A DNA stretch of 64,000 nucleotides from Methanobacteriota archaeon (GTDB lineage: Archaea; Halobacteriota; Bog-38; Methanoflorentales; Methanoflorentaceae). The position numbers and the translations under genes were made by a program. The DNA lies in assembly GCA_963719035.1 (NCBI GenBank), contig CAVRAO010000002.1:608001-672000 (forward strand), given 5' to 3'. Numbering within the stretch: position 1 is the stretch's first letter; each line of letters begins with the position of its first letter. The notes under the pieces were generated by a model. That model was not told the origin of the DNA and ran no database searches. It saw only the letters and a program-made list of their open reading frames with translations. Below, in pieces: positions 26,932 to 63,825 of the stretch.

Positions 26932-26932
26932 A

Positions 26933-28295: not shown

Positions 28296-28298
28296 GAT

Positions 28299-31432: not shown

Positions 31433-31433
31433 C

Positions 31434-33365: not shown

Positions 33366-33438
33366 GTGTTCTCCGTTTCGAATGTGCTATGGAGCTACGC
33401 GTACTCTAAATTTGCTATTAGGATGCGATACACCCCGG

Positions 33439-34845: not shown

Positions 34846-34856
34846 TTTTTCCTCCC

Positions 34857-36584: not shown

Positions 36585-36886
36585 AAGTCAACACCTACAG
36601 ATCGCTTAATCTTCTCTCTTAGATGAGTACGTTCATCTGCCGCTCCACCAATCGAGATGACGGTCGGCTCGACCGAATCGTCCAAAGCTATGCGCAAGGG
36701 CGCCGACAGCTTTTCAACGTCGTCGCTGTTCATGATCAAAATCCCGATATCCTCTTCTTTTAAAAGCTCCTTAAGTGTCGGCTCTAAGTCAGCGTCGGTG
36801 GTGATAAACGTTTTTCGCACGCCAGCCAACAAAAAGCCAGTCACAAAATCGGCACTGCCAACAACTGCAACTTCCACGCGAATCAC
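36575..36886 (-). CDS. atpF: A-type ATP synthase subunit F, operon 2
   Basis: [30 protein letters not shown]. Confidence 0.93.
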
Positions 36887-36916
36887 CGCAAAGTTTTATG
36901 TCCAGAATCGTGTTTG

Positions 36917-37978
36917 CTAAAGAATCAAATGGTCTTTAATGATGGCTTCCGGAAGTCCTGCCTCTTTTCCTCGAGCGATGGCCTGGATGTTTGTGACTTC
37001 CGTGTCCTTGCTTAACATATACCCAAGCATCGGGAGCACCGTTAGCGGATGAAACGTTGAGGTTTTCCAAACATGCTCGTTCAAGAATTTATCTAACCGC
37101 AGTTCGATCTTGCTCAGCGATTCCACTCGGTCAGTGATGATGTCGGAGATGGCGCCCCAATACGGGTATTTATTAAGTAGTGTGACAAATTCCTCGAAGG
37201 GCGCGCTTACCAATTTTTCAATGTCTTGATCGGTGAGGTAGAGACCATTAGGTATGATATATTCGAGTGCTCTTGTGCCAGAAATGCCTGCATTTCTCAA
37301 CCTGAACATAGTTTTCAAGTTGGCAACGTCGATCTCCATCTGAACAACGCGCAAATAAAGCGAGGAGCCCGTTATCCGTGAGACAATTTCAACCATCCTC
37401 ACGTAATAAAACTTGTCGAGCGCATCTTCCAGCTTCATCAAAGACTCGGAATAGTCGATGTCTTTAATGATCTCATAGTACACCGTTCCCTTAAGGGCCG
37501 CGATGACCTCGTCAACATGTGGTTTCCTTGCGAGACTCTGCAAAAAATCGAGGGAGAGCTCACCGCTAGGGACGAGCACCCTTAGTACCTCCTCTTCTGA
37601 GGCGCCGTAAAGTTTTCCTCTTAATATGGTTTTGATTTCTCGTATGTCCCAGCGTCTCAGATATTCCACTATTAATTCGTGAGGTTCGCCCATCGTCATC
37701 TCAGTGAGCTTAACGAATGTTCGAGCCAAATTGAGATGAGTGGCAAACTCGATCAGGTCGACACCCGAGTGTTGACGTGCGAGCTCATCGACTTCAGCCT
37801 TGTACTCTGACTCCTCAATAAAGCGCGCTAATTCAGGAAGCGCCATCACGAGCATTTTTGTGTAGGTCTCCGGCGGAAAGAGCTTGACCTTCATTGCATG
37901 CACTCGTGCAGAGCTGTATGCGTATCTCGCTTTGCGCGATGACCCTGAGTATCTGCGCTTTTTTGTCGGCGCTTTCAT
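36917..37978 (-). CDS. atpC: A-type ATP synthase subunit C, operon 2
   Basis: YAY..ARVHAMK, WDIREIKTILRGK, EVTNIQAIARGK. Confidence 0.93.
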   Translation of the reverse strand: MKAPTKKRRYSGSSRKARYAYSSARVHAMKVKLFPPETYTKMLVMALPELARFIEESEYKAEVDELARQHSGVDLIEFATHLNLARTFVKLTEMTMGEPHELIVEYLRRWDIREIKTILRGKLYGASEEEVLRVLVPSGELSLDFLQSLARKPHVDEVIAALKGTVYYEIIKDIDYSESLMKLEDALDKFYYVRMVEIVSRITGSSLYLRVVQMEIDVANLKTMFRLRNAGISGTRALEYIIPNGLYLTDQDIEKLVSAPFEEFVTLLNKYPYWGAISDIITDRVESLSKIELRLDKFLNEHVWKTSTFHPLTVLPMLGYMLSKDTEVTNIQAIARGKEAGLPEAIIKDHLIL

Positions 37979-37984
37979 TCGTCC

Positions 37985-38533
37985 TCACACGCTTAAAATC
38001 TGCAAGAGCTGTTTCAAAGACCTGTCTCGCACGTTCTTGAGAATCGAATCAAATGTCAGGTCGCGTAATACCGTACCATCCTCGTTTTCTAATATTACCC
38101 CGCCCGAACACGGAATTGTACCACCGTATTCCAAGCTGCTAATTCGCTTGACCAAAGACTCGTCGTTTTCGTTCGAAAAAACCCGGGTAGAGTCTGTCTG
38201 CGATTCCAGAAGCTTTTTGATAATTTCCTCTCGTTCTGATTCGGGAAGTGTAGCTAGCTTCTCGATCGCTTCGTCGTATACTCGATCAAGCAAGTCCTTC
38301 TTTGCATTCAGAAGAGCTCGCTTAACCTCGAGATTCGCACTTGAGATCTCTCTGTTTTTCCGACGTTCAATTTGCTCGGTCGTCTGCTCACGTTTTTCTT
38401 CACGGATCTGACGTGCCGTTTTTTCGGCGCCCGCGATTATCGCGTTCGCCTCATCAATCCCTTCTTGTCTGATGCGATTCGCTTCCTCCTCCCCTCGCGT
38501 TAGAACGTCTTTAACGACGACTTCCAAGCCCAT
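37985..38533 (-). CDS. atpE: A-type ATP synthase subunit E, operon 2
   Basis: MGLEVVV, GGVILENEDG..RDLTFD. Confidence 0.92.
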   Translation of the reverse strand: MGLEVVVKDVLTRGEEEANRIRQEGIDEANAIIAGAEKTARQIREEKREQTTEQIERRKNREISSANLEVKRALLNAKKDLLDRVYDEAIEKLATLPESEREEIIKKLLESQTDSTRVFSNENDESLVKRISSLEYGGTIPCSGGVILENEDGTVLRDLTFDSILKNVRDRSLKQLLQILSV

Positions 38534-38539
38534 ACGTCC

Positions 38540-38782
38540 TCAACCTAAGGAAGGTAGGGTTACAAACAGCAATATCAAGGCCACAACAAGCCCGAAGATG
38601 ACGATAGACTCCGGAATGACGGTCATAACCAGACCCCTCCCAAAGAAGCCCTCATCTTCCGCCATTACTCCTATGGCTGCTGATCCGATAACTTGCTCGC
38701 CCAAGGCGGCTGCGATTCCCGTTGCGCTGACCGCTATCGCTGCGGATAGTGCGACCAGCCCTGCTCCTATTGGATCTACCAT
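38540..38782 (-). CDS. atpK: A-type ATP synthase proteolipid subunit K (c), operon 2
   Basis: MVDPIGAG...GEQVIGSAAIGVMAE...VIPESIVIFGLVVAL. ATG at 38782 follows GGAGG. Confidence 0.93.
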   Translation of the reverse strand: MVDPIGAGLVALSAAIAVSATGIAAALGEQVIGSAAIGVMAEDEGFFGRGLVMTVIPESIVIFGLVVALILLFVTLPSLG

Positions 38783-38783
38783 T

Positions 38784-40694
38784 TTATTTTTCCTCCGTAT
38801 ACTTTCTCTCAAAACCGAATGGTTTGTACTTAACACCGCCTCCACGATAGAATTTCGTGAAGAATTCAACATAATGTAATCTCAACGCCTGCAATCCCGA
38901 ATCCAAAATTCCCAACGCCGTATTGATTCCGTGACCGGCAATCAGCAAGACTACACCAAAAATGACAAAAATGCCTCCTTTCGAAAAAAATAGCGCGTCA
39001 GATAGCTTGTTTACAGCAAGGGCGATACCTGTAGAAGATACACCTATAGAGAGCAATCGCGAGTACGATAGCACGTTAGATAGAAGCGTCGGGAGCTCAG
39101 TAAGACCGATCATGCCCTCACCCATTATCAAGAAGATAAAGCCAACAACCGCGACGACCAGCCCTGCGCCCAATCCTAAAGAGAGTTGAATACCGGTGCC
39201 AGATGAAAGCGCCGGCAAGATGAGTGCGACGACTACGGCCCCACCCCAGAGCATGAAAATCCAGCTCACCTTTGCAAAGACTGCATGCTTCAACCCATGT
39301 TGTTTGTATTCATTAACAAATCCCAGAACGTACCCAAGCGTTAGCATCAGTAAGCCGATGATAAAGGTTGCGATTAGCAGATTTAACACGTTTTCCAAAC
39401 GCGGAACCCCATAATACTCAATGGATGTAAGTAACCCCTTGTGCCCAAAAGCTTCGACCCCAAAGAACTCGTTGAAAATGAGCCCGAAAATAACTGAGAA
39501 AACGCCCGCGTAAACGCCAATTATTGCTAGATCGCGCATTCCCTGAGATTTGACTCGTCGACTTACTAAGAGACCGAGAGCAATTACAATCCAGCCGTAA
39601 CCGACGTCGCCCAACATTAAGCCGAAGAGAGCCGGGTACATAAACGTCATTAACTTCGTTGGATCGATCTCGTTATACCTAGGTATAGAGAAAGCCCTTA
39701 TGAGAACCTCAAGCGGACGTGAAGGCAGAGGATTTTTGAGCGCTACGGGGACTTTTTCTACATCAGCAACTTCAGAACTGTCAGCAGCGACGATAATGTG
39801 GCCGTTTGTTGCGCCGTCCAGATCGCTTTGGATCAATCCGAGATCCTTCGTTGGGATCCACCCTTCCACAATGAACGCATTTTTGGTGGTGGCGAACCGT
39901 AGCGGGGCTTCTGCCTTTTGCGTTTCTATTGAAAGGTATTCATCTGAGGCGAGTATATACTCGATGTGCTTCTGGCGGAGGTCGGCCAGATCCCCCTCGC
40001 TCTTTTGCTTTTCAGATTGAAGATCGGTGAGCTGAGCATCCAGATCGACGATTATATCCTTTGGAATGCCCTCACCTTTAGGGAGTGGGAGGGCTGCATA
40101 GCCCTGCTCCTGTAAGCGTTTAAGAACGTCATCCTCGAATTCCCGAGGAATAAAAAGAGAGATCGCGTGTCCCCGCCCATATAGGGCGGTTTCTAGCTCA
40201 TAGTCATTAGCAATGTCGCTGATGAGTGGTGACCCTTTTAACGTCCCGACGAACACCGCGAGCGATTGGTACCCTGTATATAGTTCTAAGGGTAGGTCGA
40301 AACTCTTGAGAGGCTCAAGCAACCGCTTTTTGTCCTTGATGTCTTTAATCTTGGATTCTATTTCGCTGAGTCTTTCCGTCACTTGTGTGACTTCAACGTC
40401 AAGTTGCTCAGTTTTCGCATCGATCGTATCGATTATGGCCCCTTCCGGGTACTTGTTGGGAATGTCTTCTTTGCCTTTAATGCTGAGATAACTAGCTAGA
40501 GAACGTAGAGAGACTGCACGCTCTGAAAGCTTGGTGATACTCTCGTGCGGCTTGCCGATTTTGAAATCTTCATCTTCATCAACGAAGTCAGCAATGTGAA
40601 CGACATCATGCTTGTGCATCACATCAATAGCGATGTTTATATAGTCTTTAGATCCTGCAATGATGACTCTCGTCATCGGTTGCGGCTCAAACAT
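38784..40694 (-). CDS. atpI: A-type ATP synthase subunit I (a), operon 2
   Basis: EGWIP, YNEIDPT, FGLMLGDVGYG, LSYSRL, LRLHYVEFFTKF. Confidence 0.95.
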   Translation of the reverse strand: MFEPQPMTRVIIAGSKDYINIAIDVMHKHDVVHIADFVDEDEDFKIGKPHESITKLSERAVSLRSLASYLSIKGKEDIPNKYPEGAIIDTIDAKTEQLDVEVTQVTERLSEIESKIKDIKDKKRLLEPLKSFDLPLELYTGYQSLAVFVGTLKGSPLISDIANDYELETALYGRGHAISLFIPREFEDDVLKRLQEQGYAALPLPKGEGIPKDIIVDLDAQLTDLQSEKQKSEGDLADLRQKHIEYILASDEYLSIETQKAEAPLRFATTKNAFIVEGWIPTKDLGLIQSDLDGATNGHIIVAADSSEVADVEKVPVALKNPLPSRPLEVLIRAFSIPRYNEIDPTKLMTFMYPALFGLMLGDVGYGWIVIALGLLVSRRVKSQGMRDLAIIGVYAGVFSVIFGLIFNEFFGVEAFGHKGLLTSIEYYGVPRLENVLNLLIATFIIGLLMLTLGYVLGFVNEYKQHGLKHAVFAKVSWIFMLWGGAVVVALILPALSSGTGIQLSLGLGAGLVVAVVGFIFLIMGEGMIGLTELPTLLSNVLSYSRLLSIGVSSTGIALAVNKLSDALFFSKGGIFVIFGVVLLIAGHGINTALGILDSGLQALRLHYVEFFTKFYRGGGVKYKPFGFERKYTEEK

Positions 40695-41010
40695 GATATG
40701 TCCTCTTAAACTCCTCAACTAAATAAGAGAGCGCTTCAGCGTGCTTTTTCTCTGCGCGCTCTTTGACGCTTAAAATATCTGCCTGTCCTGCGTCGTGGAT
40801 TTCTTGCTTAGCCTTACTTATTTCTGCGTTGGCGCTCGCATTTAAATCGTCTGCTATCCTGCTCGCTTCTTGCTGTGCGGCATCGATAATTTCAAACGAT
40901 TTCTTTTTTGCATCCTCAATAGTGGCCTCTTTTTGGGTCTGCGCTTCGTCGATCATACGCTGGGCTTCTGCTTCAGCAGCCTTAATCTCAGACAATATCT
41001 CTGACTTCAT
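40687..41010 (-). CDS. atpH: A-type ATP synthase subunit H, operon 2
   Basis: MKSEILSEIKAAE coiled coil, first gene of the operon. Confidence 0.88.
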   Translation of the reverse strand: MKSEILSEIKAAEAEAQRMIDEAQTQKEATIEDAKKKSFEIIDAAQQEASRIADDLNASANAEISKAKQEIHDAGQADILSVKERAEKKHAEALSYLVEEFKRTYHV

Positions 41011-43943: not shown

Positions 43944-44111
43944 AGGCTCAAGTGCAGTCAGGTTATTATTTACCCTGTTTCTAGCAGTAATCCTGTAGAC
44001 GGAAGACTTGTGAGAGTGCGTTTCTGCTTCTGAGCTGTAACGAGGGCGTGCAATTTTAAGTAGCATAGCAGAGTAATTTTAGGTAGTGGAGCGTACAGTA
44101 CGGAAAACAGC

Positions 44112-44858
44112 ATGCAAACCATTGCTATAACAGGTAAAGGCGGAACGGGCAAGACGACTTTTGCCTCTCTCCTTGTAAAACATCTTAGCGCCGATAACAA
44201 AGCCATTTTGGCAGTTGATGCAGATCCCAACTCAAACTTAGACATGCGACTGGGACTTCGCGTACAGCAGACGATTGGCGACTTGCGAGAGGATCTACTC
44301 AAAGAGTCGTTTCCTGCTGGAATTGCCAAAAATGAGCTTATCGAGTACCAAATACGACTAGCCCTCGTTGAAGGGGATACGTTCGACCTTATCGCCATGG
44401 GACGGCCCGAAGGACCCGGATGCTACTGCTATATCAACAACGTGTTGCGGGATGTCCTGGACAAACTCTCCGTCAATTACGACTACGTCGTCATTGACAA
44501 CGAAGCGGGTATGGAACACCTTTCTAGACGGACAACGAGAAACGTTGACGTATTGTTCATTATCAGCGACGTCACTGCGCTAGGTATCACCACCGCGAGT
44601 CGGATCAAAAGGCTTTCCGAGGATCTCAATCTCGTCGTAGGAAAAACTTTTTTGGTGCTGAATGAAGTGAAAAACAACGTGCCCGATAGCATCAGAAGTC
44701 AGATCCAGCAACAACAACTAGAGCTCATCGGGACCATTCCGACAGATGCCTTAATTGAAGAGTATGCGTTGGAAGGAAAGTCTTTTTTTGAGTTGCCGAA
44801 TAATTCGGCTGCGCTTAAAGCAGTTCGCGAAATCGCAGAGCGCTCTATAGCACCTTAA
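44112..44858 (+). CDS. cooC: CODH/ACS nickel-insertion ATPase CooC/AcsF
   Basis: GKGGTGKTT, VDADPN, GPGCYC, IDNEAGMEHLSR. Confidence 0.93.
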   Translation: MQTIAITGKGGTGKTTFASLLVKHLSADNKAILAVDADPNSNLDMRLGLRVQQTIGDLREDLLKESFPAGIAKNELIEYQIRLALVEGDTFDLIAMGRPEGPGCYCYINNVLRDVLDKLSVNYDYVVIDNEAGMEHLSRRTTRNVDVLFIISDVTALGITTASRIKRLSEDLNLVVGKTFLVLNEVKNNVPDSIRSQIQQQQLELIGTIPTDALIEEYALEGKSFFELPNNSAALKAVREIAERSIAP

Positions 44859-44867
44859 GTAAGTTCG

Positions 44868-46202
44868 CTATCCATTGGCCAGCTCCTTCAAATATTTCGG
44901 AAGAGCCGATGAGTCCTTTACACCAACGATTACTTCCCAGCCCGTGAGCTCCTCTAATTTCATTTTCAGCATCGCGATCATGCCGGGAATTATAAGCTTT
45001 CGGTGATCGACCTTATCTGCAATCTTGTACTCCGTTAGGGTCTGTGCGATTTTCTCTGGTGTAAACTTATCAGCGGCGAATGCCGTCATCACTGATAATC
45101 CTTCGGTATCTACCACGAGAAGGTGTGCAGGAACCTTGCTCGCCTCAATATCACTTGCCACGGTAAAATATGTTAAGGAAAAGTTAGACGTGACGATAAC
45201 CGGCGAGTTACGACTTGGTTTTCCTATTTCATAGAGGCCTGGGTTGACCTGTATGAGCGCTTGGGGATCTGTAAATATGTTGGTTCTTAATGTGGTCAGT
45301 GGGTATAGCCGCGCGGGATCGAGGTCACTGAAAAGTATTAACGAGGCATATTTCAGCGTTCCTATCGCCGCTCTAATCGCTTGAGTTTCAACATCCGCGC
45401 CGTTATCCAAGTTTATCATAACAGGGAAACCTAGCGGCCGGAAAAGCTTCTTGACGCTCAGTCGACGCAAGATGGTCAACCATTCCAGTGTCTGGCGTAA
45501 GGGCTTAGCACCGAGGTTTAAATCTAAAACGATATCCTCTAAGCCCTCGCTTTTTGCTACTTCCGACAGTGACACGAGCTCATCGATGTCATCTGCATAA
45601 AGCGCGAGTGGGCACGCGTACTGCTTTGCAAGCTTTGCCATTGATGCACAGTTGTTAGTACTGCCCGCGTAGATTAACGGTTTAGCCTTCGATACAACCT
45701 TGAGTCCCGCTTCAACGACTTCAGGATTATCGCTCATCAAAACTAGCGGTAATCCACTGTTGTCGTTCACGAGCGTCACCGCATCAGAGAAACGCTGCGC
45801 GCCCCCTTTCGCTTTGACCCCGATCAAGTCAACTCCTGAGACAATGCCAATGCGCTCGTATTTCATCGCGTCAAGCTTCTTGGCCCTTTCAACAACGCTG
45901 TGGTCGTCGAGGTCGTCTTCGATTATGAGCGCATATGCCGTCTGGTTGAAGAACGTCTTTTCGTGTCTGAAAAGCTCTGTTTCACCTCCGATCTCTAAAT
46001 CGCCGACTTTCACGGTGCGCATAGGCGGCGAAGCGGAGCTCTCTAGTTGTTGGACCACATCAGGTGCCACATATGGACACTTCGTGAGTTCTGCCTGTTT
46101 GTTAGCCAACATCATAGCAAACGCTAAGCATGTAGGTACCCCGCATTCGCCACAATTCTTTTTGGGCAACAGTTTGAATATATCAAGAGCTGTCATCGGC
46201 AT
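44868..46202 (-). CDS. acsC: Corrinoid/FeS protein large subunit (gamma)
   Basis: LPKKNCGECGVPTCLAFA...CP, GGETELFRHEK, NFSLTYF, DTEGLSV. 444 aa. Confidence 0.95.
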   Translation of the reverse strand: MPMTALDIFKLLPKKNCGECGVPTCLAFAMMLANKQAELTKCPYVAPDVVQQLESSASPPMRTVKVGDLEIGGETELFRHEKTFFNQTAYALIIEDDLDDHSVVERAKKLDAMKYERIGIVSGVDLIGVKAKGGAQRFSDAVTLVNDNSGLPLVLMSDNPEVVEAGLKVVSKAKPLIYAGSTNNCASMAKLAKQYACPLALYADDIDELVSLSEVAKSEGLEDIVLDLNLGAKPLRQTLEWLTILRRLSVKKLFRPLGFPVMINLDNGADVETQAIRAAIGTLKYASLILFSDLDPARLYPLTTLRTNIFTDPQALIQVNPGLYEIGKPSRNSPVIVTSNFSLTYFTVASDIEASKVPAHLLVVDTEGLSVMTAFAADKFTPEKIAQTLTEYKIADKVDHRKLIIPGMIAMLKMKLEELTGWEVIVGVKDSSALPKYLKELANG

Positions 46203-47183: not shown

Positions 47184-50100
47184 TCAGAACATACCCATTG
47201 GAGGCATATGCAGCGCAGGGTGGTCGACCTTTGCCAAGTACTCCGCTAATTCATCCGCATCCGTCGTAATAGTTTCGTCAGCAATCTTGTCTACTAAGTC
47301 CGGCAAGTCGAGTTCCTGTGCTCGCTTCTTAAGGTCTTCTCGCATCGCTTCTTTGAGCTCTTTCGGCATCCAAACGACGCGCGCTAACCCTCCGTCCGCA
47401 CGGATAAATTTCTTACTCGTGATGAACTGCCTGCCGACGCCGATGAACCCGGGGGTTTGGTTACCTCCGCCTACAGAGCCCGCAAGCGTTGAGAACTTCA
47501 TACCGATAGGGGTCATACCTGTATATTCACGATTGACCACTATCACGCCCTGTAGGTCGCTGCTGATCGCAACGATGCACTCAAAGCATCCGCACGACGT
47601 CTGCGGATCCTCCATCATCGTGTATTGATTCATCCGATCGATGTGGCCATGGGTGAGCTCTTGGACCGTTTTATTTACATTTGACCACTGGCCCTTTTGC
47701 TCGTCAATCACAGCGCCCTTCTCAACCGGCTGATTTGGTCCGTTTGGATCGATGCTGAATCCCGCAGCCGCATCGAGCCAGTTTAGTGCGCCGCACAGCC
47801 CCAAGCGTTCAGGAGAGATAATACAGACATGACTCGGGGCGAAGCTCTGACATAGTGTACACGCGTAAAACGTATCAACGCTCTCGTCTGTTAGCCCTTC
47901 AATACGCCGATCCCGCTCTGCATACGATTCCATAGCCTCAGGCAGGTGTTTTTCCACCTCCTTTTCGTCAGTGATGATGGTGACTTGTATCCGGCTGATG
48001 ATACCGCCGAGCTCCTCCTTCATCTTATTATAAAGGATGTCACCGAAGTGCTTGAATCGTAACCCATTGGCCACACTATTCTTGCTCAGACGAACCCAAA
48101 GCAAGTTTCTCTGACCCGTATGCCACGCGCCCTCTGCGTAATTGATGAACTGGTGGATGCGTCGTTCGACGACGGGCTCAAACTCCTTTTTCATATGCTT
48201 TCCGTACACTTCAACAAGCATCCCAAGCGGTGACACACTGCCCTCTTCCATCTCATCGACATCCTTCCCGATGAGCGTGATCTCGCCGTCCTTAACCGCG
48301 TCTGCATCGCGGATCTTCACGAGCTCAAACACCTTTGTCTTGGTTGGACCGCCGCACTCGACGTAGGTCTGGGGCTTGCGCACCGTTTCTCCCTCGAAGG
48401 CAAGCCCGTAAGCGACCGGTAACGAGACCTCGCCGACCGTGACCTGCATGTCCCGCATCTCGATTGCGTGCGCGACGATCTGATTGTAATCCGTCTCCAC
48501 CTCGTACTTGCCCGGCACTTCCTCCACATCTTGATCGGTGATCGTCGGTGAGCCATTGAACAGCACCGCGAACTCAATAGCTGCCTTAATGTCGTCGATA
48601 GGACCTAGTTGGACGACGACGACTTTCGGACGCTTTGCAAGGTACTCAAAGAGCCCTGTTCGATCTCCCGGCTTGACGTTCCCGAACGTCAGCGCCGCGC
48701 GGATCGCAAAGCTCAGCCCGTGAATCGCTTGCGTGAATTCGCCCACGCAAAACAGCAGCCGGTCAAGTCCCTTATGCTCGCCTATCTCGATGCCTGCCTC
48801 GGCAATCTGCTGGATGGTGTCAAATGTGGGAATTACGAGCATGCCCTTACTCTGGCAGTCCCTGATGATCTTTGCTAGTAGTTTAGGGTCCTTCGCCTTT
48901 CCTACCAACACTAAGACCCCAGGTATGGTATCATCAACGAATGAGATGCCTAACCTCCGGAGCACTTCGTCGGCAATGAACCCGGTGTATGGGGTATCCG
49001 CATACGGGTCAGGATTGTCGATGTACTTGAGGGCCTCAACGATTTCTGCAGCGACCATAGTCGCTTCTCCTGAGGCCACAGCGTTGTCAAACGTGTACTC
49101 CTCTCTAATCTTGCCCCTCACTTCTCCAAGAAGTCGCGGCAACTGCGCGAGTTTCGTCACTCTTTCGCCTGTCCACGCGGTGATGCATGGAAGATAGTAC
49201 CCGGTGCTTGGGTATCCAATCTCCTTATCACGCCCGTGTTGACGTATCGCCTTATTGAGGAGCTGATCTGCGTATCCAGTCGCGATAATGGCCCCGTCGA
49301 TCGCTTTCTTGTAGAGGGTTTCATTTTGTATTGCAGGTTTGCTTACGTCCGGTGTGGTACCCTTGTCGATCGCTTTCTTGTAGAGGGTTTCATTTTGTAT
49401 TGCAGGTTTGCTTACGTCCGGTGTAGTACCATTCCAATACGTGACCCCGCCGTCGAGTTCGCTGTGCGCGTTCATCTTCCATCTGCGGTATTGAATGGTG
49501 TTCACTAACGTTTTCGCCGCGATCGAAGGATTAGGTTCAAATATGAAGTGCCCGCCATACACGTCCTTTGCAGTCGCCTGGGCCACCTCATCAGCAAGAG
49601 GGCTTCCCTTAATGAACGGGTAAACCCCGACATGCGTGGGCCACCCCGTTGCAACGCACCACGTTCCAATCGCCACTGCTTTTTCGCTCATCGCTTCTGG
49701 AGCGCTCGCGACGATGGGAAGGTCCTGTATATCGACATCCATTACCTGAGCAAGTTCGCTCACGAAATTTTCGACGCGCGAATTGTCCACACATGACCCC
49801 ATATGAAGCACAAGCGGCAAGGACTCGCCAATGGTCTTTTCGCCGACATCTTTGAGGAACGCCTTAAGCGACTCACCCGCGTGCTCCTCGACTGCTTCTG
49901 GCGCCAACAAACCGTGCTTCGCAAGCGATTGCGCCGCACAACCGGTTACAAGCGTTAGTATGTTATTTCTGACGAGCTCTTTGGCGATCGTCAAATGGCA
50001 AAGGTCGTGTTCAGCCTTAGCGGGATTGTTGCACCCAGCGATAAGGGCGATGCCCTGAACCTCTCCGCTGCGAATCTTATCAGCGAGATACTGGAGCGGT

Positions 50101-51386
50101 TCATTTTCGTTAAAGGTGCTTAACAACGATTTTATGTACTCGAGGCTAAATCCTGCGACGACCTTGCTCGAAATGTTAGGGATAGAGATTTTTGTGGGAT
50201 CCCTGTTCTTGTACGCTTCAATAGCAACGTTCACGATCTCTTTAGCACCTTCACGCGCCGCTGCTTCGTTGAATTCGATGTGCGTATCGCCAGGGATACG
50301 GGTAATCGGCATTGTCGATATCAGCTTCGTGTGGAAACACTGTGTCCAGAACCCAACCGATGGCGCAATGCATTGATAATCAATGACCATCGCGTCGATG
50401 ACGCCTGTCATTATTGCTAACTCTTGGCTCGCGAAATTGGTGACGATCGGGATCCCTCTTCGCATGAGCAGTTCGTTGGCAGTGCAACAAATACCGACGA
50501 TATTAATTCCCTTAGCTCCTGCGGCAATTGCACTGTCTTTTAGCTCATCGGCAGCGTCGCAAATCACTTCGCCAAGAATAGGATTATGTCCATGTACGCA
50601 GAGGTTGATGTGGTCCTCTTTCAGCGCGCCGAGATTGGCCTGGGACACTACCATTTGCGGAACGCCGAACAAGACGTCTGAAAGGTTAGAGCTGATGTTC
50701 TCTCCAGTCACGTCACCGAGCGAGCATTTGATGCCCCCGAAAATCAACGGTACGGGATCTGCATCACATCCCATATGGGTCCTGTGCATGACTTCGGTGA
50801 TACCCTTGTCAATGTTGGTCGCAATGACGTCATTTCGCTCCAAGAGTTCTAGCCTCTTTGCGGGGAGCATAATTTTGAGCCAGGTACAGGCTTCGTCCTC
50901 ATTCCTTGAGAAGTCCTCCAAAGCTGAATTCGCTACAGCCACGGCAAGCTCATTTACGTTCTTATTTTTCTCCAAACCGAGCTTTGCAGCAAGGGACCGT
51001 AATTTCGCCTCATCTTTAACGCGATAGTCGGGTGCCTTGCCTTCGCCGACGCCTTTTAGGGCATGCGCAAGATGCCTTCCGTGATCAGAGTGAGCAGCAC
51101 AGCCGCCTGCCATCATTCGGATCAGGTTTCGCGCTACAATAGTGTAATCTTTAGCCCCACAGATGCCTCTTTGCGGCTCTTTGCCAAAAGGATTGATCCG
51201 ACAAGGTCCCTGCAAGCAGATCCGACAGCATAGGCCTGACTCGCCAAATCCGCACTGCGGCTGCATCGAGTCTGCCCTGTCCCACATCGTCTTCATGTTA
51301 TTCTGCTCGGCAAGCGGCATCATCGCGAGTGCCGCAGGATCCACGGTCATCGATTTTGGATTCGTTTTGTTACGTCTCTTGTCCAT
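47184..51386 (-). CDS. acsA-acsB: Fused CooS/AcsA-type Ni-CO dehydrogenase + AcsB acetyl-CoA synthase (1400 aa)
   Basis: N-half has CGFG...CCRICLQGPC...ICG (D/B clusters) and C-cluster ligands HGHN, GICCT, DYQC, AGCN, TGC, GSCVD plus MSEKA. C-half has the GYP.TGYYLP N-domain, CTLCQSF..HVC...GLCG and TSCGCFE (A-cluster). One open frame. Confidence 0.93.
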   Translation of the reverse strand: MDKRRNKTNPKSMTVDPAALAMMPLAEQNNMKTMWDRADSMQPQCGFGESGLCCRICLQGPCRINPFGKEPQRGICGAKDYTIVARNLIRMMAGGCAAHSDHGRHLAHALKGVGEGKAPDYRVKDEAKLRSLAAKLGLEKNKNVNELAVAVANSALEDFSRNEDEACTWLKIMLPAKRLELLERNDVIATNIDKGITEVMHRTHMGCDADPVPLIFGGIKCSLGDVTGENISSNLSDVLFGVPQMVVSQANLGALKEDHINLCVHGHNPILGEVICDAADELKDSAIAAGAKGINIVGICCTANELLMRRGIPIVTNFASQELAIMTGVIDAMVIDYQCIAPSVGFWTQCFHTKLISTMPITRIPGDTHIEFNEAAAREGAKEIVNVAIEAYKNRDPTKISIPNISSKVVAGFSLEYIKSLLSTFNENEPLQYLADKIRSGEVQGIALIAGCNNPAKAEHDLCHLTIAKELVRNNILTLVTGCAAQSLAKHGLLAPEAVEEHAGESLKAFLKDVGEKTIGESLPLVLHMGSCVDNSRVENFVSELAQVMDVDIQDLPIVASAPEAMSEKAVAIGTWCVATGWPTHVGVYPFIKGSPLADEVAQATAKDVYGGHFIFEPNPSIAAKTLVNTIQYRRWKMNAHSELDGGVTYWNGTTPDVSKPAIQNETLYKKAIDKGTTPDVSKPAIQNETLYKKAIDGAIIATGYADQLLNKAIRQHGRDKEIGYPSTGYYLPCITAWTGERVTKLAQLPRLLGEVRGKIREEYTFDNAVASGEATMVAAEIVEALKYIDNPDPYADTPYTGFIADEVLRRLGISFVDDTIPGVLVLVGKAKDPKLLAKIIRDCQSKGMLVIPTFDTIQQIAEAGIEIGEHKGLDRLLFCVGEFTQAIHGLSFAIRAALTFGNVKPGDRTGLFEYLAKRPKVVVVQLGPIDDIKAAIEFAVLFNGSPTITDQDVEEVPGKYEVETDYNQIVAHAIEMRDMQVTVGEVSLPVAYGLAFEGETVRKPQTYVECGGPTKTKVFELVKIRDADAVKDGEITLIGKDVDEMEEGSVSPLGMLVEVYGKHMKKEFEPVVERRIHQFINYAEGAWHTGQRNLLWVRLSKNSVANGLRFKHFGDILYNKMKEELGGIISRIQVTIITDEKEVEKHLPEAMESYAERDRRIEGLTDESVDTFYACTLCQSFAPSHVCIISPERLGLCGALNWLDAAAGFSIDPNGPNQPVEKGAVIDEQKGQWSNVNKTVQELTHGHIDRMNQYTMMEDPQTSCGCFECIVAISSDLQGVIVVNREYTGMTPIGMKFSTLAGSVGGGNQTPGFIGVGRQFITSKKFIRADGGLARVVWMPKELKEAMREDLKKRAQELDLPDLVDKIADETITTDADELAEYLAKVDHPALHMPPMGMF
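49296..49430. repeat. In-frame tandem duplication (two 66-bp copies, period 69 bp, 1 mismatch) at the CODH-ACS junction
   Basis: Copies at 49296-49361 and 49365-49430 both encode GTTPDVSKPAIQNETLYKKAID. Confidence 0.95.
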
Positions 51387-52301: not shown

Positions 52302-53906
52302 TCACTGTCGTTCCCACCGCTCTTGCAGTATCCGCTCTGCCTCTTCCCGGTGTGCATCCATTACATATGGGAGCTCAGAAACCTTTGCTGCGTCTTTGGT
52401 AAGCGCCATCAAGTCTCTTCGAGAGAGAGCTCCTATGTTAAACTTCCTGCTTCCTGCCATCAGTTGCTGCAACCCAGTCTTGAACTTTTGGCAATAGGTA
52501 TAGAGCCCGATTGCGCCTAGCGGTATTGCATCAGTTTCGTGACCAAACCGTTCCTTTATCTCGTCGTAGGAGACGAATATCTCTTTCGGCGTGACTCCGT
52601 ATGTTGACACAGTCCTAGGCAAGTTCGCTTCTTCGATCCACTTCCCGATATTCTTTCCTACCATGCCGGGGATCATTAAAGCGCGGCCCATGCATACAGC
52701 CTTTACAAAGGGAGCGCCCATCGCAATTGCCTTGTATACGCCATCTTCTGTAGAGAATCCCCCTGCCATCGCGATATCGGGAACCCGCATTCCCATATCA
52801 CAGAGGGTTCTGCAAAATTGGTACGTCAATGCTTCGAGATAGAATGTCGGGATGCCCCATTCATTCATCATCGGCCACGGGCTCATCCCTGTGCCCCCTG
52901 GAGCGCCATCGATTGTAATGAGGTCAAGCTTCGCTTCTGCCCCATAGCGGAGTGCCATAGCGAGTTCCATCGACGAATATGCGCCTGTTTTAAGCGTGAT
53001 ACGTTTAAATCCAATGTCGCGCAGGCGGTCTACTTCTTCAAAAAAGGCGGCACGAGATACGAACCCAACGCGAGAATGTCGCTCGAATTGCCTAATTCCA
53101 CCGTCCTGGTATGCCCTTTCCACTGCCGGAAGAGTTGGGTCGGGCAGCACGATATACCCGCGGTCCTTAAGCTGTCGTGCCCGCTCAATGGTTTTGACTT
53201 GTATCTCGCCTCCGATGCACTTCGCTCCCTGACCCCATTTGAGTTCGATCGTTTCCAAATTGTGCTTTGAAGCTAGATACTCCGCAACCCCAAGCCGCGT
53301 ATCCTCTACGTTAATTTGGACGAGCAGCTCTCCGTATCCGTCGTGATATCTTCTATAGGTATCTATTCGGTAATCCATATCCGGCGATTTCTTGACTTTA
53401 CCCTCACTATCAAGTTCAAGCCCGGGATCCACTCCACAGACGTTCTCTCCGCAGACGATAGTAATTCCTGCGAGCGCCGCGCCCGTCGCAAAGTGTTCCC
53501 AATTATGCTTCGCAATTGTGGTAGAGCCCAATGCACCGGTGAATATGGGTACCCGCATCTTAGTCTTTTTATTATACCCATACTCCGTTTCGGTATCCAC
53601 GTTTTCAAAAAGCGCGGTGTCGGGACCCGCCTCAACACCCTCTGGTAGTCCTTCGGCGCCCACGGCATACCCCTGAATGTTTAGGTGTGAATAATCTATC
53701 GGGTAGTTTTTGTCGGCGCCGGCGGTAACTTCTCCGAACCTGGCTTGGTAAAGCACTTCTCGGCCCCTAAAGGAGGACAACCAGATTTCACAGCCGCCTT
53801 TACAACCGTCAAGGCATTCTGTACATATCCCCGACATTGGGACAACATTCTGTGCGCGGTTGAAGGTGTGCGTTACTATATTAGCGTTCGGTCTTCTCAG
53901 GTTCAT
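52302..53906 (-). CDS. FMN-binding glutamate synthase family protein (stand-alone GltB domain 2-like)
   Basis: N-terminal Cys cluster (CTECLDGCKGGC), ELKWGQGAKCIGGE, LKTG, IDGAPGGTGMSP, AGG. Confidence 0.88.
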   Translation of the reverse strand: MNLRRPNANIVTHTFNRAQNVVPMSGICTECLDGCKGGCEIWLSSFRGREVLYQARFGEVTAGADKNYPIDYSHLNIQGYAVGAEGLPEGVEAGPDTALFENVDTETEYGYNKKTKMRVPIFTGALGSTTIAKHNWEHFATGAALAGITIVCGENVCGVDPGLELDSEGKVKKSPDMDYRIDTYRRYHDGYGELLVQINVEDTRLGVAEYLASKHNLETIELKWGQGAKCIGGEIQVKTIERARQLKDRGYIVLPDPTLPAVERAYQDGGIRQFERHSRVGFVSRAAFFEEVDRLRDIGFKRITLKTGAYSSMELAMALRYGAEAKLDLITIDGAPGGTGMSPWPMMNEWGIPTFYLEALTYQFCRTLCDMGMRVPDIAMAGGFSTEDGVYKAIAMGAPFVKAVCMGRALMIPGMVGKNIGKWIEEANLPRTVSTYGVTPKEIFVSYDEIKERFGHETDAIPLGAIGLYTYCQKFKTGLQQLMAGSRKFNIGALSRRDLMALTKDAAKVSELPYVMDAHREEAERILQERWERQ

Positions 53907-54016: not shown

Positions 54017-54502
54017 CTATTGTCCATATATCAGTGCACCACACTTACATGCAAGCACACACGATAGCTCCGCCGCACCACCGCAGAGGTCGCATTTAAC
54101 GGCTTCATGGCCGCGCGCCTGTATCGCCCCAAAGGGGCACGCCTCCACACATTCAAGACATCCAATGCAGCTTTCGTCATCAATCGTCACTACACCGTCG
54201 CCATCTTTTGTAATCGCGCTTGCTTTGCAAACCTCTATACACTTCGGGTGCTTACAGTGAACGCACGTTATAAGATGCAATTTGCCATCGTTATGAACAA
54301 TCAAGAGCCTCGAGAAAGGGCGCGGGTGCTCGCAGATTGCTGTGTTAATATCACCTGACGCGCTATGTCGCAGCGCACAGGCAAGTTCGCACGACTTGCA
54401 CGCCATACAATTCTTAGGAATAAACCTTACGAGCGAATCTATGCAAGCATCACAGCCTTCGCCGCATTGAAATTGCTCTTCGTCCCAATCAAAGCAGTTC
54501 AT
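54017..54502 (-). CDS. cooF: CooF-like ferredoxin, copy B, with a Cys-rich N-terminal extension
   Basis: Close paralog of 51370-51798 (identical PKNCMACKSCELACALRHS and KCDLCGGAAELSCVLACKCGALIYGQ). Extra MNCFDWDEEQFQCGEGCDAC. GAGGTGA RBS. Confidence 0.88.
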   Translation of the reverse strand: MNCFDWDEEQFQCGEGCDACIDSLVRFIPKNCMACKSCELACALRHSASGDINTAICEHPRPFSRLLIVHNDGKLHLITCVHCKHPKCIEVCKASAITKDGDGVVTIDDESCIGCLECVEACPFGAIQARGHEAVKCDLCGGAAELSCVLACKCGALIYGQ

Positions 54503-54649
54503 GTATTTCACCTCATCGAGCAAAGAACGAAGGTTTGAACCCTCACCGGTATATTCCGCATTTTTTTAGAATTCAGCTTCAGCAAAATCCTTGGAAATAA
54601 CACGATATTGAACGATAGGTTAAGATCGAATACCTTTTTTTATTTGGAA

Positions 54650-59568: not shown

Positions 59569-60972
59569 GTGGAAGATACGTATAGAAGGACCCTTTTCTT
59601 GTTTAGACGGGATTTGCGCGTGCGCGACAATAGTGGACTCATCGAGGCGTCCGCAGCCTCCGAAACAGTGGTACCTGCCTTTATCTTTGATCCGAGACTG
59701 GCATCGCAAAATCCCTACTTCAGCTACAACGCATTCCAGTTTATGGTCGAGTCGCTGCGCGACCTCGCACGCCAAGTGGCAGCAGAACGTGGCTTCTTAT
59801 GCGTATTTCGTGGACGCCCAGAGGCAGTCGTGGAACGTCTCATCGCAGAGGAGGAAATAGAGGCAGTTTTCGTAAACAGAGACTACACGCCCTTTAGTCG
59901 AACGCGAGACGCTGAGATAGCCAAAGTGTGTGATGAACGCCATAATGCCTTTCACTGCATTTCTGATGTACTCCTGCATGAACCGGGCGATGTCCTTACA
60001 GACGGCGGCAAACCATACACTATTTTTTCTTATTTCTTAAGAAAAGCGCGTTCGATTCCTGTTAGGCCAGTCAACGCTGCGAGAGTGAACAATCTATCGA
60101 ATCTTAGCATTGCCTCGGAAAGTCGTGAGCGCTTTAACTGTGAGTTGCCTGATCAAAACGCGCTACGATCAGTGCGTGGCGGGCGCCCACAATCGCTCAA
60201 AACGCTTACCAACCTCCACAAGTTTGCAGAGTACGAGACTGAACGTGAATACCCCGCCAAACGCGGGACGACGAGGCTTTCGGCGCACAACAAGTTCGGC
60301 ACGTGTTCAATACGAGAAGTTTACCACTCTGTTGTGGACAAACTTGGTGCCGAACATCAGCTCATAGTTGAATTGTTCTGGCGTGATTTCTACTCTCACA
60401 TCGCGTTTTTCTTCCCCCACATCTTCCGTGGCTCATTCTATCCTAAGTACGACGCTTTAGTATGGGATGCCACCACACAGAAATTTGACGCGTGGCGTGC
60501 GGGACGAACGGGGTTTCCCATTGTCGACGCGGGGATGCGAGAGCTAAACGCTACCGGATTCATGCACAACCGCGTCCGCATGATCGTTGCATCGTTCCTA
60601 ATCAAAGATCTGCACATCGATTGGCGTCGGGGAGAGCGCTATTTTGCACAAAATCTTGTCGACTGTGACCGCGCCATTAACGACGGAAACTGGCAGTGGT
60701 GCGCCTCGACCGGATGCGATGCACAACCGTATTTTCGAATTTTCAATCCATGGCTTCAACAGCGCCGTTATGATCATGACTGTCGGTACATAAAAACGTG
60801 GATCCCTGAGTTGCGAGAAATCGCCCCAGCGCTTCTCCATTCTCCCAACAAGCTTAATGAGGTGGCAATTCCAGGCTATCCCGCACCTATCGTCGATCAT
60901 GCAATTGAAAGCAAGCGAGCGAAAAAAGCGTATCGCACAGTTGCAAAAGGTGCACAAGGAGTTCGGACGTGA
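59569..60972 (+). CDS. phrB: Deoxyribodipyrimidine photolyase (class I/III-like)
   Basis: FRRDLRVRDN, W..GRTGFPIVDAGMREL..TGFMHNRVRM, GNWQW, PYFRIFNP. Confidence 0.93.
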   Translation: MEDTYRRTLFLFRRDLRVRDNSGLIEASAASETVVPAFIFDPRLASQNPYFSYNAFQFMVESLRDLARQVAAERGFLCVFRGRPEAVVERLIAEEEIEAVFVNRDYTPFSRTRDAEIAKVCDERHNAFHCISDVLLHEPGDVLTDGGKPYTIFSYFLRKARSIPVRPVNAARVNNLSNLSIASESRERFNCELPDQNALRSVRGGRPQSLKTLTNLHKFAEYETEREYPAKRGTTRLSAHNKFGTCSIREVYHSVVDKLGAEHQLIVELFWRDFYSHIAFFFPHIFRGSFYPKYDALVWDATTQKFDAWRAGRTGFPIVDAGMRELNATGFMHNRVRMIVASFLIKDLHIDWRRGERYFAQNLVDCDRAINDGNWQWCASTGCDAQPYFRIFNPWLQQRRYDHDCRYIKTWIPELREIAPALLHSPNKLNEVAIPGYPAPIVDHAIESKRAKKAYRTVAKGAQGVRT

Positions 60973-61785: not shown

Positions 61786-62553
61786 TTATCTCAGCGTTCC
61801 GCCAAATACCTGCCACGCCAGCGCTGTTTTTGCGACGATGCTGAGAACGATGTACCCGTACTCCCCGTACAGGTAGTCCTTCCACCTGCCCACCTTCTTG
61901 TACTGCAGGAACATGTTGAGGGGGAACAACAGGAAGAAGAACGTTAAGGACCCAAGGATATAGTAGATGAACGCGGGAACCGTCGACCCTTGCGTCGCTC
62001 CGATGAAGTACATGAATATCACTACCCACGGAATCAGACCGGCAAATGATCCGAATATGAACGCTGTCCAGTTCGTTTTTTCGGTTTTCTGGTTGTGCAG
62101 CTCCATCATCAGCCCGAAAAGGTTCATCGTCGCGTTTATGGCGAATAATGGGATAAGTGCAGCTATGTCATAGACGCCGCTGAGCATGGCAATCGCTACG
62201 ATCATGACCGACGAACTTAACGCATAGTCGTACCAGCGGGCGTAGTTGATGTGATTCTTGAGGTTTTTGACGTACCAGCGGTTCAAGAATGGCGATGCCA
62301 TAAGGAGATGGTCAAACGTCGAAATCAGCAGGAACAATGCAACAAGTAAACCCACCCGAAGCTGGTAGATCGTATTCTCGACGGGCAAAAGAAGCTGCGT
62401 GGTCGTGTTGAAATCGAGGTAATAGGTGTTTATCGGCAGCTTAAAGGAATTACTTAAAAAGACTATAGCAATGGCTTGAATTAAAAGGAACAAGCCCGCA
62501 ATGACGTTGAATGTTCTCAAACGCTTAAACTTACCTTCCTCTTGGTTTTCCAT
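61786..62553 (-). CDS. heR: Heliorhodopsin
   Basis: 7 TM. N..RW.DY..SSS.M, MNLFG..ME, QY...G.W.DY..GE..YI.LS..AK (retinal Lys242). Confidence 0.93.
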   Translation of the reverse strand: MENQEEGKFKRLRTFNVIAGLFLLIQAIAIVFLSNSFKLPINTYYLDFNTTTQLLLPVENTIYQLRVGLLVALFLLISTFDHLLMASPFLNRWYVKNLKNHINYARWYDYALSSSVMIVAIAMLSGVYDIAALIPLFAINATMNLFGLMMELHNQKTEKTNWTAFIFGSFAGLIPWVVIFMYFIGATQGSTVPAFIYYILGSLTFFFLLFPLNMFLQYKKVGRWKDYLYGEYGYIVLSIVAKTALAWQVFGGTLR

Positions 62554-62672: not shown

Positions 62673-63825
62673 CTAGCTTTGTTCGCTTTTATTTCGGTCG
62701 CTGCAGTCTCGGATAATGAACTCTTCTATCTGATCTCGTGCTCGCTCGCGTGCCGTCTGGTGGCGTTTCAGGAACTGTACAACCTTAGCAGCAAGCTCCT
62801 TTTTGCACTCGCCACAAACGCGTGCCCCCTGCAAACACTCCTGACGCATCTCAAGCGCCCTTCGATCGTCCTTTTCAAATAGGCAAAACGAGTACTGATA
62901 TACTGCACAAACCTCAGGTATTCCGCCAAGTTCTTTCTGTTCTTTCACGGTGGTTCTCCCGCCGGTAAATGCATTGGCTATCTTCTTCCGTGCCTCTTCG
63001 GGGGCGTCTGTTGTGAAAATGCTCGTTTCCGGAAGCGAAGCGGACATTTTGTCGAGGCCTAAAAGGCTTGGGAAGAAGCGGCTATGTACGAGCGCTGGCT
63101 TGTAGTAGCCCATTTTGGGCGCAACGTCACGAGTGATGCGAAAGTGCGGGTCCTGGTCGATCGCACAAGGAATCAGTACCCGGAACGTTTCGCCCTGCCA
63201 AAATCGTTGGCAAGAATGCAGGCGCCGATTGCATGCTGGTAAAAAAAACCATTCCAATGTTAGTGCTTGTATCGAATCCGAAAACCGCTCGAGCCGCCGA
63301 AAACGTCACGCGCTTCGCTACTTCTAGCGCGATTGGATAGAGGGTTCTTACATACTCGGTGTCGAGAAATATCCGCGTCTTTTTCGGATCGAAGCCGAGC
63401 GCGATAAGATCGAGGCAGTTGTCATATGAAAAACCACGCGTCGCGTATGCACTCAGCTCGTCCTTCTGAAGGAATTTTTCATCGTCGGTCATCTGGAAGT
63501 ATAATTCAGCCCCAAATGCGTCTTGCAAGTACTTCGTGAACATCCACGGCATCAGATGACCAAGATGGGTCTGCCCGGAAGGCCCTCTTCCGGTGTAGAG
63601 TACGAACTTCTCACCCGCTTCGTATTGATCCAATATCCAATTGAGGTCTCGATGTGAGAAGAAGACCTGCCGTCGCAACATCAACGGGATTGAACCGGTG
63701 AGTTTCTTAAATCGCGCTAAAACAACCTCGTCTATGGGCTGCGTTCCAAAAAGGGCTATCAGCTTGTTGTAGTCAACGTGACCTTCGACTTCCCACGGAG
63801 TTACGATAAACTCGTCGCTTGGCAT
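62673..63825 (-). CDS. trpS: Tryptophanyl-tRNA synthetase, split by a +1 frameshift near 63180
   Basis: VTPWEV, YTGRGPS..HLGH, TDDEKF in the first ORF. LIPCAIDQDPHF and KMSAS in the second. The 1153-bp span equals 384 codons + 1. Confidence 0.92.

Follow-up and report, generated by a model that had tools for sequence, protein, structure and literature searches.

The Wood-Ljungdahl pathway has CO dehydrogenase/acetyl-CoA synthase (CODH/ACS) as its core enzyme, which works reversibly. Here, we describe a gene in which the two enzymes are joined in one polypeptide. The gene occupies positions 47184–51386 on the minus strand of a window of 64,000 nucleotides taken from contig CAVRAO010000002.1 (assembly GCA_963719035.1) of a methanogenic archaeon of the Halobacteriota, class Bog-38. 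In the list of open reading frames (ORFs), it appears as a single frame of 1400 codons plus the stop that runs from ATG to stop and translates without interruption. Genes of a bacterial-style acs cluster surround it (Table 1). An original prediction made from the letters alone had read this frame as CooS and AcsB in one uninterrupted chain, and both enzymes prove to be complete in it. That prediction was silent on the strand, on a duplication within the linker and on the methanogen host.

Domain architecture and metal-cluster ligands

The fused protein contains four Pfam domains: Prismane (residues 52–620), CODH_A_N (708–789), CdhC (989–1144) and ACS_CODH_B_C (1155–1397). Its N-terminal part belongs to the CooS family (TIGR01702; residues 15–638, 711.1 bits vs. 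an NCBIfam cut-off of 478), and residues 11–644 align with residues 25–662 of the 674-residue CODH of Moorella (1mjg_A; E = 5e-204). With TIGR00314, which describes the archaeal CdhA type, the same part scores 52.5 bits vs. a cut-off of 781.3 and is therefore not a CdhA. The C-terminal part is a bacterial ACS according to NF040764 (residues 696–1397; 951.5 bits vs. a cut-off of 800). Residues 678–1397 align with residues 12–728 of Moorella ACS (1oao_C), and residues 683–1397 align with residues 12–727 of Carboxydothermus hydrogenoformans ACS (7zkj_B; E = 1.7e-233). PF18537, the N-terminal domain through which ACS docks onto CODH, lies at residues 708–789, and the alignment with 7zkj_B begins at residue 12 of that chain. 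The NCBIfam match, PF18537 and the structure alignments thus agree with the earlier claim of a full bacterial-length ACS that retains its docking domain. At ~700 residues including PF18537, the ACS part is not the short CdhC-type β subunit of ~460 amino acids. The match to TIGR00316 (CdhC; 467 bits) is restricted to residues 988–1392, and a match of the A-cluster part to the solved structure 9c0s_E (E = 3e-111) reflects the same homology. With CODH at the N-terminus and ACS after it in one ORF, the protein has the architecture of an archaeal clade of fused CooS-AcsB proteins. Every form named among the solved-structure matches has CODH and ACS as separate chains.

The ligand motifs of all metal clusters are present, as the original prediction had stated; they align with solved structures and are conserved among 27 aligned fused proteins. 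Residues were assigned to clusters by CODH-II and ACS numbering mapped through the structure alignments. The ligands of the D- and B-clusters (C45, C53, C54, C57, C62 and C76) follow the pattern C-x7-CC-x2-C-x4-C-x13-C, match their counterparts in 1su6_A and are invariant in the 27 proteins. Also invariant are the C-cluster ligands H267, C301, C339, C452, C483 and C532 and the acid-base residue H99, while the acid-base lysine K569 is at least 90% conserved; in 1su6_A these eight residues correspond to positions 261, 295, 333, 446, 476, 526, 93 and 563, respectively. In the ACS part, the A-cluster residues C1176, C1179, C1188 and C1198, assigned to the [4Fe-4S] cluster, and the C1265-G1266-C1267 motif of the Ni-Ni site are invariant and match the motifs of 7zkj_B.

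The fusion is genuine and recurs in archaea

Matches to the fused gene were found in 22 of 24 species genomes of class Bog-38. The frame is uninterrupted in 14 of the 24 (13 span residues 1–1400 stop-free and G010 has one frame of 1375 amino acids), and four of these 14 are single-contig genomes. In the other genomes with a match, the gene is truncated at a contig end or disrupted inside the ACS part (G007, G014 and G015), and no break falls on the junction. The two genomes that gave no match, G011 and G005, are 61% and 86% complete. The same gene occurs in other Bog-38 records at 86–92% identity, and one 4430-nucleotide contig of an independent run (X10) spans it whole. The original prediction would have been undermined by a stop and start between the halves or by relatives that all had two genes and only separate proteins; within the class, we observed the single frame in 14 of 24 genomes and an unbroken junction. 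Because the same frame recurs in these genomes with no break at the junction, the fusion is not an artefact. The single-chain CODH/ACS is a genuine fusion and belongs to a clade of fused proteins in archaea.

The wider distribution supports this conclusion. A search for proteins that carry both CODH and ACS domains, which had been suggested as a check, was run on public protein clusters from several sources with a word-based method and with the junction residues 560–800 as the query. About 105 of the 120 clusters listed (123 matches) are 1300–1400 amino acids long and contain all four Pfam domains; more than 100 clusters therefore share the architecture. Ten of 80 named loci carry a single-ORF fusion, and all ten are archaeal (three in Bog-38 and seven in Thermoplasmata/Methanomassiliicoccales), and the gene lies in pieces in a further archaeal locus (L030). 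None of the 24 bacterial loci holding both halves is fused. All have two ORFs, which bears out the premise that CODH and ACS are usually separate subunits. Two relatives, P0109 (1894 amino acids) and P0117 (1896 amino acids), are fused CODH/ACS proteins that contain an in-chain intein (PF14890 Intein_splicing and PF14528 LAGLIDADG_3).

The gene cluster around the fused gene

The start of the fused gene is overlapped for 17 nucleotides by the 3′ end of a gene for a CooF-like ferredoxin, which may be the electron partner of the enzyme. A homologue occupies the same place in the Bog-38 loci L016 and L040 (71–78% identity) and in the Thermoplasmata loci L020 and L024 (42–48%). Downstream lie genes for the small and large subunits of the corrinoid iron-sulfur protein (CFeSP), a small ORF that is conserved at the equivalent position of L016 and L040 (66–81% identity), RACo and an AcsE-like methyltransferase. 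The adjacency of AcsC, AcsD, the AcsE-like protein and RACo places the fused gene in a bacterial-type acs cluster. The cluster is a complete bacterial-style carbonyl-branch set composed of ferredoxin, fused acsAB, acsD, acsC, RACo and the acsE-like gene.

Table 1 Features of the fused gene and its cluster, in positions of the window
Feature	Positions	Strand	Basis
CooF-like 4Fe-4S dicluster ferredoxin, 174 aa	51370..51894	-	Pfam Fer4_11, Fer4_7 and related; NCBIfam weak Fe-S subunit matches only
Fused CODH/ACS gene (AcsA::AcsB)	47184..51386	-	1400 codons + stop; Pfam, NCBIfam, structure alignments
Ni-CODH (CooS/AcsA) domain, residues 11-644, with D-/B-/C-cluster ligands	49455..51356	-	TIGR01702; alignment with 1mjg_A, 1su6_A
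Inter-domain spacer, residues 645-698, including the duplicated segment	49293..49454	-	AF2 pLDDT <50 over 640-684; unconserved
69-nt in-frame tandem duplication, residues 653-675 and 676-698	49296..49430	-	TRF
AcsB part, residues 699-1400: N-terminal CODH-docking, middle and A-cluster domains	47187..49292	-	NF040764, Pfam, 7zkj_B/1oao_C
AcsD/CdhD-like CFeSP small subunit, 315 aa	46206..47153	-	Pfam CdhD; NF003376 369 bits vs cut-off 280
AcsC/CdhE-like CFeSP large subunit, 444 aa, N-terminal Fe-S motif	44868..46202	-	Pfam CdhD and FeS; NF003195 526 bits vs 306
Small ORF, 142 aa, between acsC and the RACo gene	43970..44398	-	no Pfam/NCBIfam match
RACo/AcsV, 623 aa	42072..43943	+	Pfam Fer2, RACo_linker, Raco_middle, RACo_C_ter; NF040756 630 bits vs cut-off 800
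AcsE-like pterin-binding methyltransferase, 345 aa, ~85 extra N-terminal residues	41132..42169	-	Pfam Pterin_bind; NF005719 254 vs 259

Upstream of the cluster, the minus strand encodes a 534-residue protein with a glutamate-synthase domain and a second ferredoxin that is paralogous to the CooF-like one (52302–53906 and 54017–54523). Both ferredoxins match one and the same upstream region of L016 and L040, at 69–78% identity. Upstream of ~51370, contigs of runs X5 and X10 no longer follow the window, a hint of strain variation in this region.

A repeat-expanded spacer joins the two halves

The "short linker" of the original prediction exists as a spacer between the two domains; a tandem duplication of 69 nucleotides within it had gone unnoticed. 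Tandem Repeats Finder (TRF) reports a period of 69, 2.0 copies and a 98% match, such that the peptide GTTPDVSKPAIQNETLYKKAID is encoded twice over residues 653–698; the copies differ at 3 of 69 bases. Structure alignment shows that the second copy is the true start of the first ACS helix. The duplication makes the protein 23 residues longer than relatives of 1377–1379 amino acids and is absent from the 11 other aligned full-length class genes. It is also exactly what is missing from the contig of run X10, which is otherwise 99.6% identical over 4.3 kb (18 differences). At the same site, the sister species G013 has a different in-frame expansion, comprising ~9 pentapeptide repeats (TTPDI, TTLDS) that add 40 residues. 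Spacer length was taken as the distance from RRW to the motif AxxGAIIAT, two fixed anchors that were both matched in 96 proteins (25 others were missed and uncounted). The spacer is 24–35 amino acids long in 95 of the 96 and 58 in this protein. The stretch lacks sequence conservation across the 27 fused proteins, and the spacer tolerates in-frame tandem expansion.

An AlphaFold2 (AF2) monomer model of residues 1–1000, built from 17 aligned sequences, gave a mean predicted local distance difference test score (pLDDT) of 69.9 and a predicted template modelling score (pTM) of 0.61. Values of pLDDT fall below 50 over residues 640–684, and the extra copy contains a short, isolated helix at 666–675. 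This predicted low-confidence stretch fits a flexible tether.

Host genome and other CODH/ACS genes

According to the available part of PMC9635834, c__Bog-38 corresponds to Methanoflorentales; in the accessible portion of a preprint (10.1101/2025.08.21.671631), the family Bog-38 is named Ca. Methanoflorentaceae, or Rice Cluster II. The host genome encodes McrA (990 bits, on the same contig as the fused gene), Mer (457 bits) and MtrH (351 bits), and formyltetrahydrofolate synthetase (FTHFS) was not found in it. The Prismane family has one match in this genome, which is the fused gene itself, and a CdhA search of it returned only weak matches to the fused gene and to ferredoxins. No CdhA scores above cut-off in any of the 24 genomes of the class; completeness reaches 90% or more in five of them. 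The fused gene is the sole CODH/ACS found in the host genome; as far as the data go, this methanogen of the tetrahydromethanopterin (H4MPT) pathway relies on a fused bacterial-type CODH/ACS.

A second, stand-alone copy of AcsB was observed on two contigs (G000:C12:65272-67395, corresponding to ~6270–8420 of L015, and G000:C5:22813-24938 in L014). This copy has its own ATG, an AT-rich upstream region and unrelated neighbors (a HEAT-repeat protein and an ArsP permease). Its DNA is 84% identical to the ACS half of the fused gene, with identity declining along the gene (92%, 5′ end; 77%, 3′ end), and frameshifts divide it into ORFs of 440, 135 and 87 amino acids. The indels (+2, −1 and +1) are common to both contigs and none lies in a homopolymer; the copy is therefore apparently a true pseudogene. 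Over 13.5 kb, the contigs share 99.85% identity and represent either a duplication or a redundant strain contig. Short relics of the copy occur in G003, G015 and G021. We considered recombination with this pseudogene as the source of the linker duplication and dropped the idea; the similarity of the pseudogene starts inside the repeat, and nothing further links the two.

Evolutionary history of the cluster

Among 401 genomes sampled from the host's phylum, matches that span both halves occur only in the host's family. This search and the named records with the same gene also led us to reject a placement of the host in Thermoplasmatota, which had been considered. Other families of the phylum have a split CooS (42–48% identical) together with a long ACS (42–46%) or a short CdhC. 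Long forms in five other families (L096-L100, from G178, G263, G025, G193 and G343) are separate ACS proteins of ~680–700 amino acids that include the N-terminal domain and are 42–46% identical to the ACS half in the window. They form a long-branched clade of their own near a few bacterial sequences, a long-branch join that may be false.

Separate trees for each half, another check that had been suggested, were built with quick IQ-TREE runs (LG+G4) with the Shimodaira-Hasegawa-like approximate likelihood ratio test (SH-aLRT) as the only support measure. They comprised 68 rows for CODH and 102 for ACS and excluded all short matches and seven near-identical or incomplete Bog-38 rows. Both halves fall in one fused clade. 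In the CODH tree, all fused forms make up a single clade (SH-aLRT 96) that is sister to AcsA of Bacillota (100); within it, the sister group of Bog-38 (100) is a subgroup of Thermoplasmata with L020 and L024 among its members (99). In the ACS tree, the fused forms cluster with the ACS-only genes of methanogenic Methanomassiliicoccales (100), and Bog-38 (100) joins the same Thermoplasmata subgroup (98). Since the ACS-only genes branch from inside the fused group (support 89–99), they appear to have lost the CODH part later.

The order of the genes tells a similar story. The succession of fused gene, AcsD, AcsC, inverted RACo and AcsE is common to Bog-38 and the Thermoplasmata loci L019 and L023. 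In the four bacterial loci compared, AcsC precedes AcsD in three, all of Bacillota type, and L045 has AcsD upstream. The congruence of both half-trees with the gene order indicates that the halves evolved as one unit and that the cluster moved between two archaeal phyla. The whole cluster thus appears to share one origin with the fused clusters of Thermoplasmatota and not with the host's own phylum. It probably reached the ancestor of Bog-38 by lateral transfer and displaced the archaeal CdhABC. Transfer into Bog-38 would be the likelier direction because Bog-38 is nested.

Several ACS-only loci deserve mention here. AcsB without a CODH part is present in methanogenic Methanomassiliicoccales and Methanomethylophilaceae (L022, L027, L029, L031-L039 and L042). 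AcsB is followed by AcsD and AcsC in L022 and L035, the only two ACS-only loci whose neighbors were compared. In L027, L029 and L031, an open frame of ~990 amino acids includes ~300 residues ahead of the ACS part. The ACS of L036, from a record titled Bacteroides salyersiae (CAVGUW010000013.1), groups tightly with those of Methanomethylophilaceae, and this contig is most likely mis-binned.

Other features of the window

Two further genes of the window appear split into overlapping ORFs that cover the halves of their profiles: Tryptophan-tRNA ligase (TrpRS; 62673–63257 and 63127–63825, minus strand) and subunit I of an A/V-type ATPase (23819–25105 and 25056–25739, plus strand). These splits are frameshifts or indel errors of the assembly. 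Two divergent A-type ATP synthase operons lie side by side (23819–32105, plus strand, and 32724–40718, minus strand), each of which encodes A, B, C, D and I subunits. This methanogen genome also contains a gene for heliorhodopsin (61786–62553, minus strand; NF038020, 322.8 bits vs. a cut-off of 100), and a DNA photolyase gene is located nearby at 59569–60972.

Comparison with known systems

Both catalytic parts are full-length homologues of those in the AcsA2AcsB2 enzymes of Moorella thermoacetica (1MJG/1OAO) and Carboxydothermus hydrogenoformans (7ZKJ), with all ligands and the ACS docking domain, and the window cluster shares AcsC, AcsD, RACo and an AcsE-like gene with the clusters of that type. 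The window enzyme differs in being one polypeptide rather than two. In Moorella, the free subunit tails measure 12 and 11 residues, whereas the fused junction without the duplication leaves ~11 residues between the aligned ends and is shorter. Further differences of the cluster in the window are AcsD before AcsC, an inverted RACo gene and a methanogen host that uses H4MPT.

The fused CooS-AcsB of Thermoplasmatota (UBA10834 and relatives of Methanomassiliicoccales) has the same four-domain architecture, a length of 1355–1390 amino acids and the same gene order and falls in the same clade in both trees. Identity to the window protein is 51–70% per half, however, and the window sequence is set apart by its methanogenic host in class Bog-38 of the Halobacteriota and by the 23-residue linker duplication. 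The ACS-only Methanomassiliicoccales (Methanomassiliicoccus and Methanomethylophilaceae) resemble the window in that their AcsB nests in the fused clade and is followed by AcsD and AcsC, but they lack a CODH in the same ORF, which looks like a secondary loss. Finally, the acetyl-CoA decarbonylase/synthase (ACDS) of methanogens, CdhABCDE, carries out the same chemistry in the same H4MPT setting, and its CdhC is homologous to the A-cluster part. In contrast to ACDS, the CODH in the window is of CooS rather than CdhA type, the ACS keeps the N-terminal domain that CdhC lacks, and the cluster has a separate AcsE-like methyltransferase and RACo.

The original prediction had left open whether such fusions were already catalogued, and they are, both in public annotation and in a table from 2019. 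Inoue et al. 2019 (PMC6344411) include two such fused proteins in Supplementary Table 1 and state in one sentence that fused Ni-CODHs were sought manually. No text describing a CooS-AcsB fusion came up in a full-text literature search. Outside the scope of that search lay Adam et al. 2018 and Mondav et al. 2014, either of which may describe the fusion or the CODH/ACS type of Methanoflorens. The fusion goes unmentioned in the accessible parts of PMC6146748, PMC9635834, PMC11176372 and PMC6147122, and the literature searched yielded no biochemical study of the fused clade. The fusion itself is thus not new. The present contribution lies in the host being a methanogen, in an apparent replacement of Cdh, in the agreement between the histories of the halves and the cluster, and in a polymorphic linker.

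Interpretation and alternative explanations

We conclude, with a probability of about 0.85, that the gene encodes a natural single-chain CODH/ACS in which a bacterial-type AcsA is joined via a short flexible spacer to a full-length AcsB, with the cluster, role and origin proposed here. That the fusion arose from an assembly or sequencing error, through a lost stop codon or an indel that joined adjacent genes, has some appeal, since acsA and acsB of bacteria adjoin in this order and a single indel could mimic a fusion; moreover, the split TrpRS and ATPase subunit I genes lie in the same assembly. The probability of such an error is nevertheless negligible, given the intact frames in 14 class genomes (four of them single-contig) and ~105 listed clusters, the independent contig that covers the entire gene, and a junction that bears no trace of a stop, a start or intergenic sequence. 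The same suspicion carries more weight for the 69-nucleotide duplication, which is unique to this genome among 12 aligned full-length class genes and missing from a near-identical strain in run X10, in an assembly with further possible indel errors. Short-read evidence speaks for a true allele. Unitig contigs of two runs from two studies, X5 and X1 (possibly the source sample), stop at 49325 and resume at 49401, exactly 30 nucleotides inside each edge of the array, the pattern that a 31-mer graph should leave where a tandem repeat is real. Sequencing depth of X1 in the repeat bin is 25.6 vs. ~15.3 alongside, and three differences between the copies are not expected from a pure collapse or expansion error. 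An assembly artefact is therefore unlikely, and the duplication is probably a real and very recent strain polymorphism. Less probable than an artefactual repeat is that the chain is a precursor cut within the spacer, or that an internal start yields ACS as well, such that the mature enzyme is an ordinary α2β2 complex of separate subunits. The spacer is predicted to be disordered and is unconserved, which would open it to proteases, and an in-frame ATG (M638) immediately precedes it in Bog-38 sequences. However, M638 is unconserved, with other fused proteins having L at this position (RRWKL and RRWVL forms), and the spacer is short, narrow in length range (24–35 amino acids in 95 of 96 proteins) and devoid of a conserved cleavage motif. 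Persistence of the fusion across two phyla argues that the covalent link has been kept.

The direction in which the enzyme works is a separate matter. Its main role is most likely acetyl-CoA synthesis for carbon assimilation, because the host is a methanogen of the H4MPT pathway. CODH/ACS being reversible, the enzyme could instead operate mainly in reverse and cleave acetyl-CoA for acetoclastic methanogenesis. This has been proposed for Ca. Methanoflorens, and the available text of PMC12296737 reports acs together with cdhC/D/E in 89.1% of 156 Ca. Methanoflorens metagenome-assembled genomes. The inference in that text rests on gene presence and transcripts, however, and the accessible part does not mention the fused bacterial-type set. 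The preprint 10.1101/2025.08.21.671631, as far as its text is available, terms the family obligate hydrogenotrophs, and the nearest relatives of the CODH half are AcsA proteins of Bacillota of the acetogen type. Sequence cannot decide between synthesis and cleavage, and we consider a predominantly reverse role doubtful, though a more serious contender than an artefactual duplication.

Several observations weigh against our interpretation of the gene, its cluster and its origin. Neither the AcsE-like protein nor RACo reaches its NCBIfam cut-off; both have clear Pfam domains. The host genome is 91% complete, so a second CODH/ACS may have escaped the search. The scores of the AF2 model (pTM 0.61, mean pLDDT 69.9) do not establish docking of the domains in cis and are too low to distinguish an ACS N-domain docked on the CODH of its own chain from one docked on that of the partner chain. 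That the chain stays intact in the mature enzyme is a prediction from the gene. Contigs from a soil metatranscriptome (X16) contain parts of both halves at ~96% identity, for which DNA carry-over is possible, and no listed RNA contig of X16 bridges 49286–49678. The half-trees come from quick searches with SH-aLRT support alone, and most fused rows in them are without a taxon name, which tempers the histories drawn from them. Lastly, the available text of PMC12296737 covers the same genes, annotates them as cdhC/D/E and reads them as a potential for acetate cleavage.

Proposed mechanism and significance

Fusion trivially fixes the stoichiometry of CODH and ACS at 1:1. By homology with the solved α2β2 enzymes, two chains would pair through their CODH domains and share the D-cluster, and the C-cluster would reduce CO2 to CO. 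The CO would then travel inside the enzyme to the A-cluster on the tethered ACS part, where it would be joined with CoA and a methyl group delivered by the AcsC/AcsD corrinoid protein. The pathway set of the host suggests that this methyl group ultimately derives from methyl-H4MPT, perhaps via the AcsE-like protein. Dimer formation, the CO tunnel, the reaction direction, the methyl donor and the direction in which the cluster was transferred are thus all to be read as proposals.

It is tempting to speculate further about the lineage as a whole. Few methanogens of northern peatlands are as abundant as Ca. Methanoflorens, and in it the five-subunit ACDS may have been wholly replaced by a laterally acquired, single-chain bacterial-type cluster that is shared with Thermoplasmatota. 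Methyl groups would come from the H4MPT branch, creating a natural hybrid in which the carbonyl branch is bacterial and the methyl branch archaeal, and the tether would be under little length constraint and expand by tandem duplication in living populations. We put forward this combined scenario tentatively, at slightly less than even odds.

A natural single-chain CODH/ACS would suit structural work on CO channelling and the motion of the ACS domain, and it would be a compact part for the engineering of carbon fixation. The accessible portions of 10.1101/2025.08.21.671631 and PMC12296737 describe the lineage as dominating methane production in northern peat. The claim of acetate cleavage, as it appears in the available text, rests on exactly these genes; their fused, bacterial-type and probably lateral nature alters how that claim should be tested.

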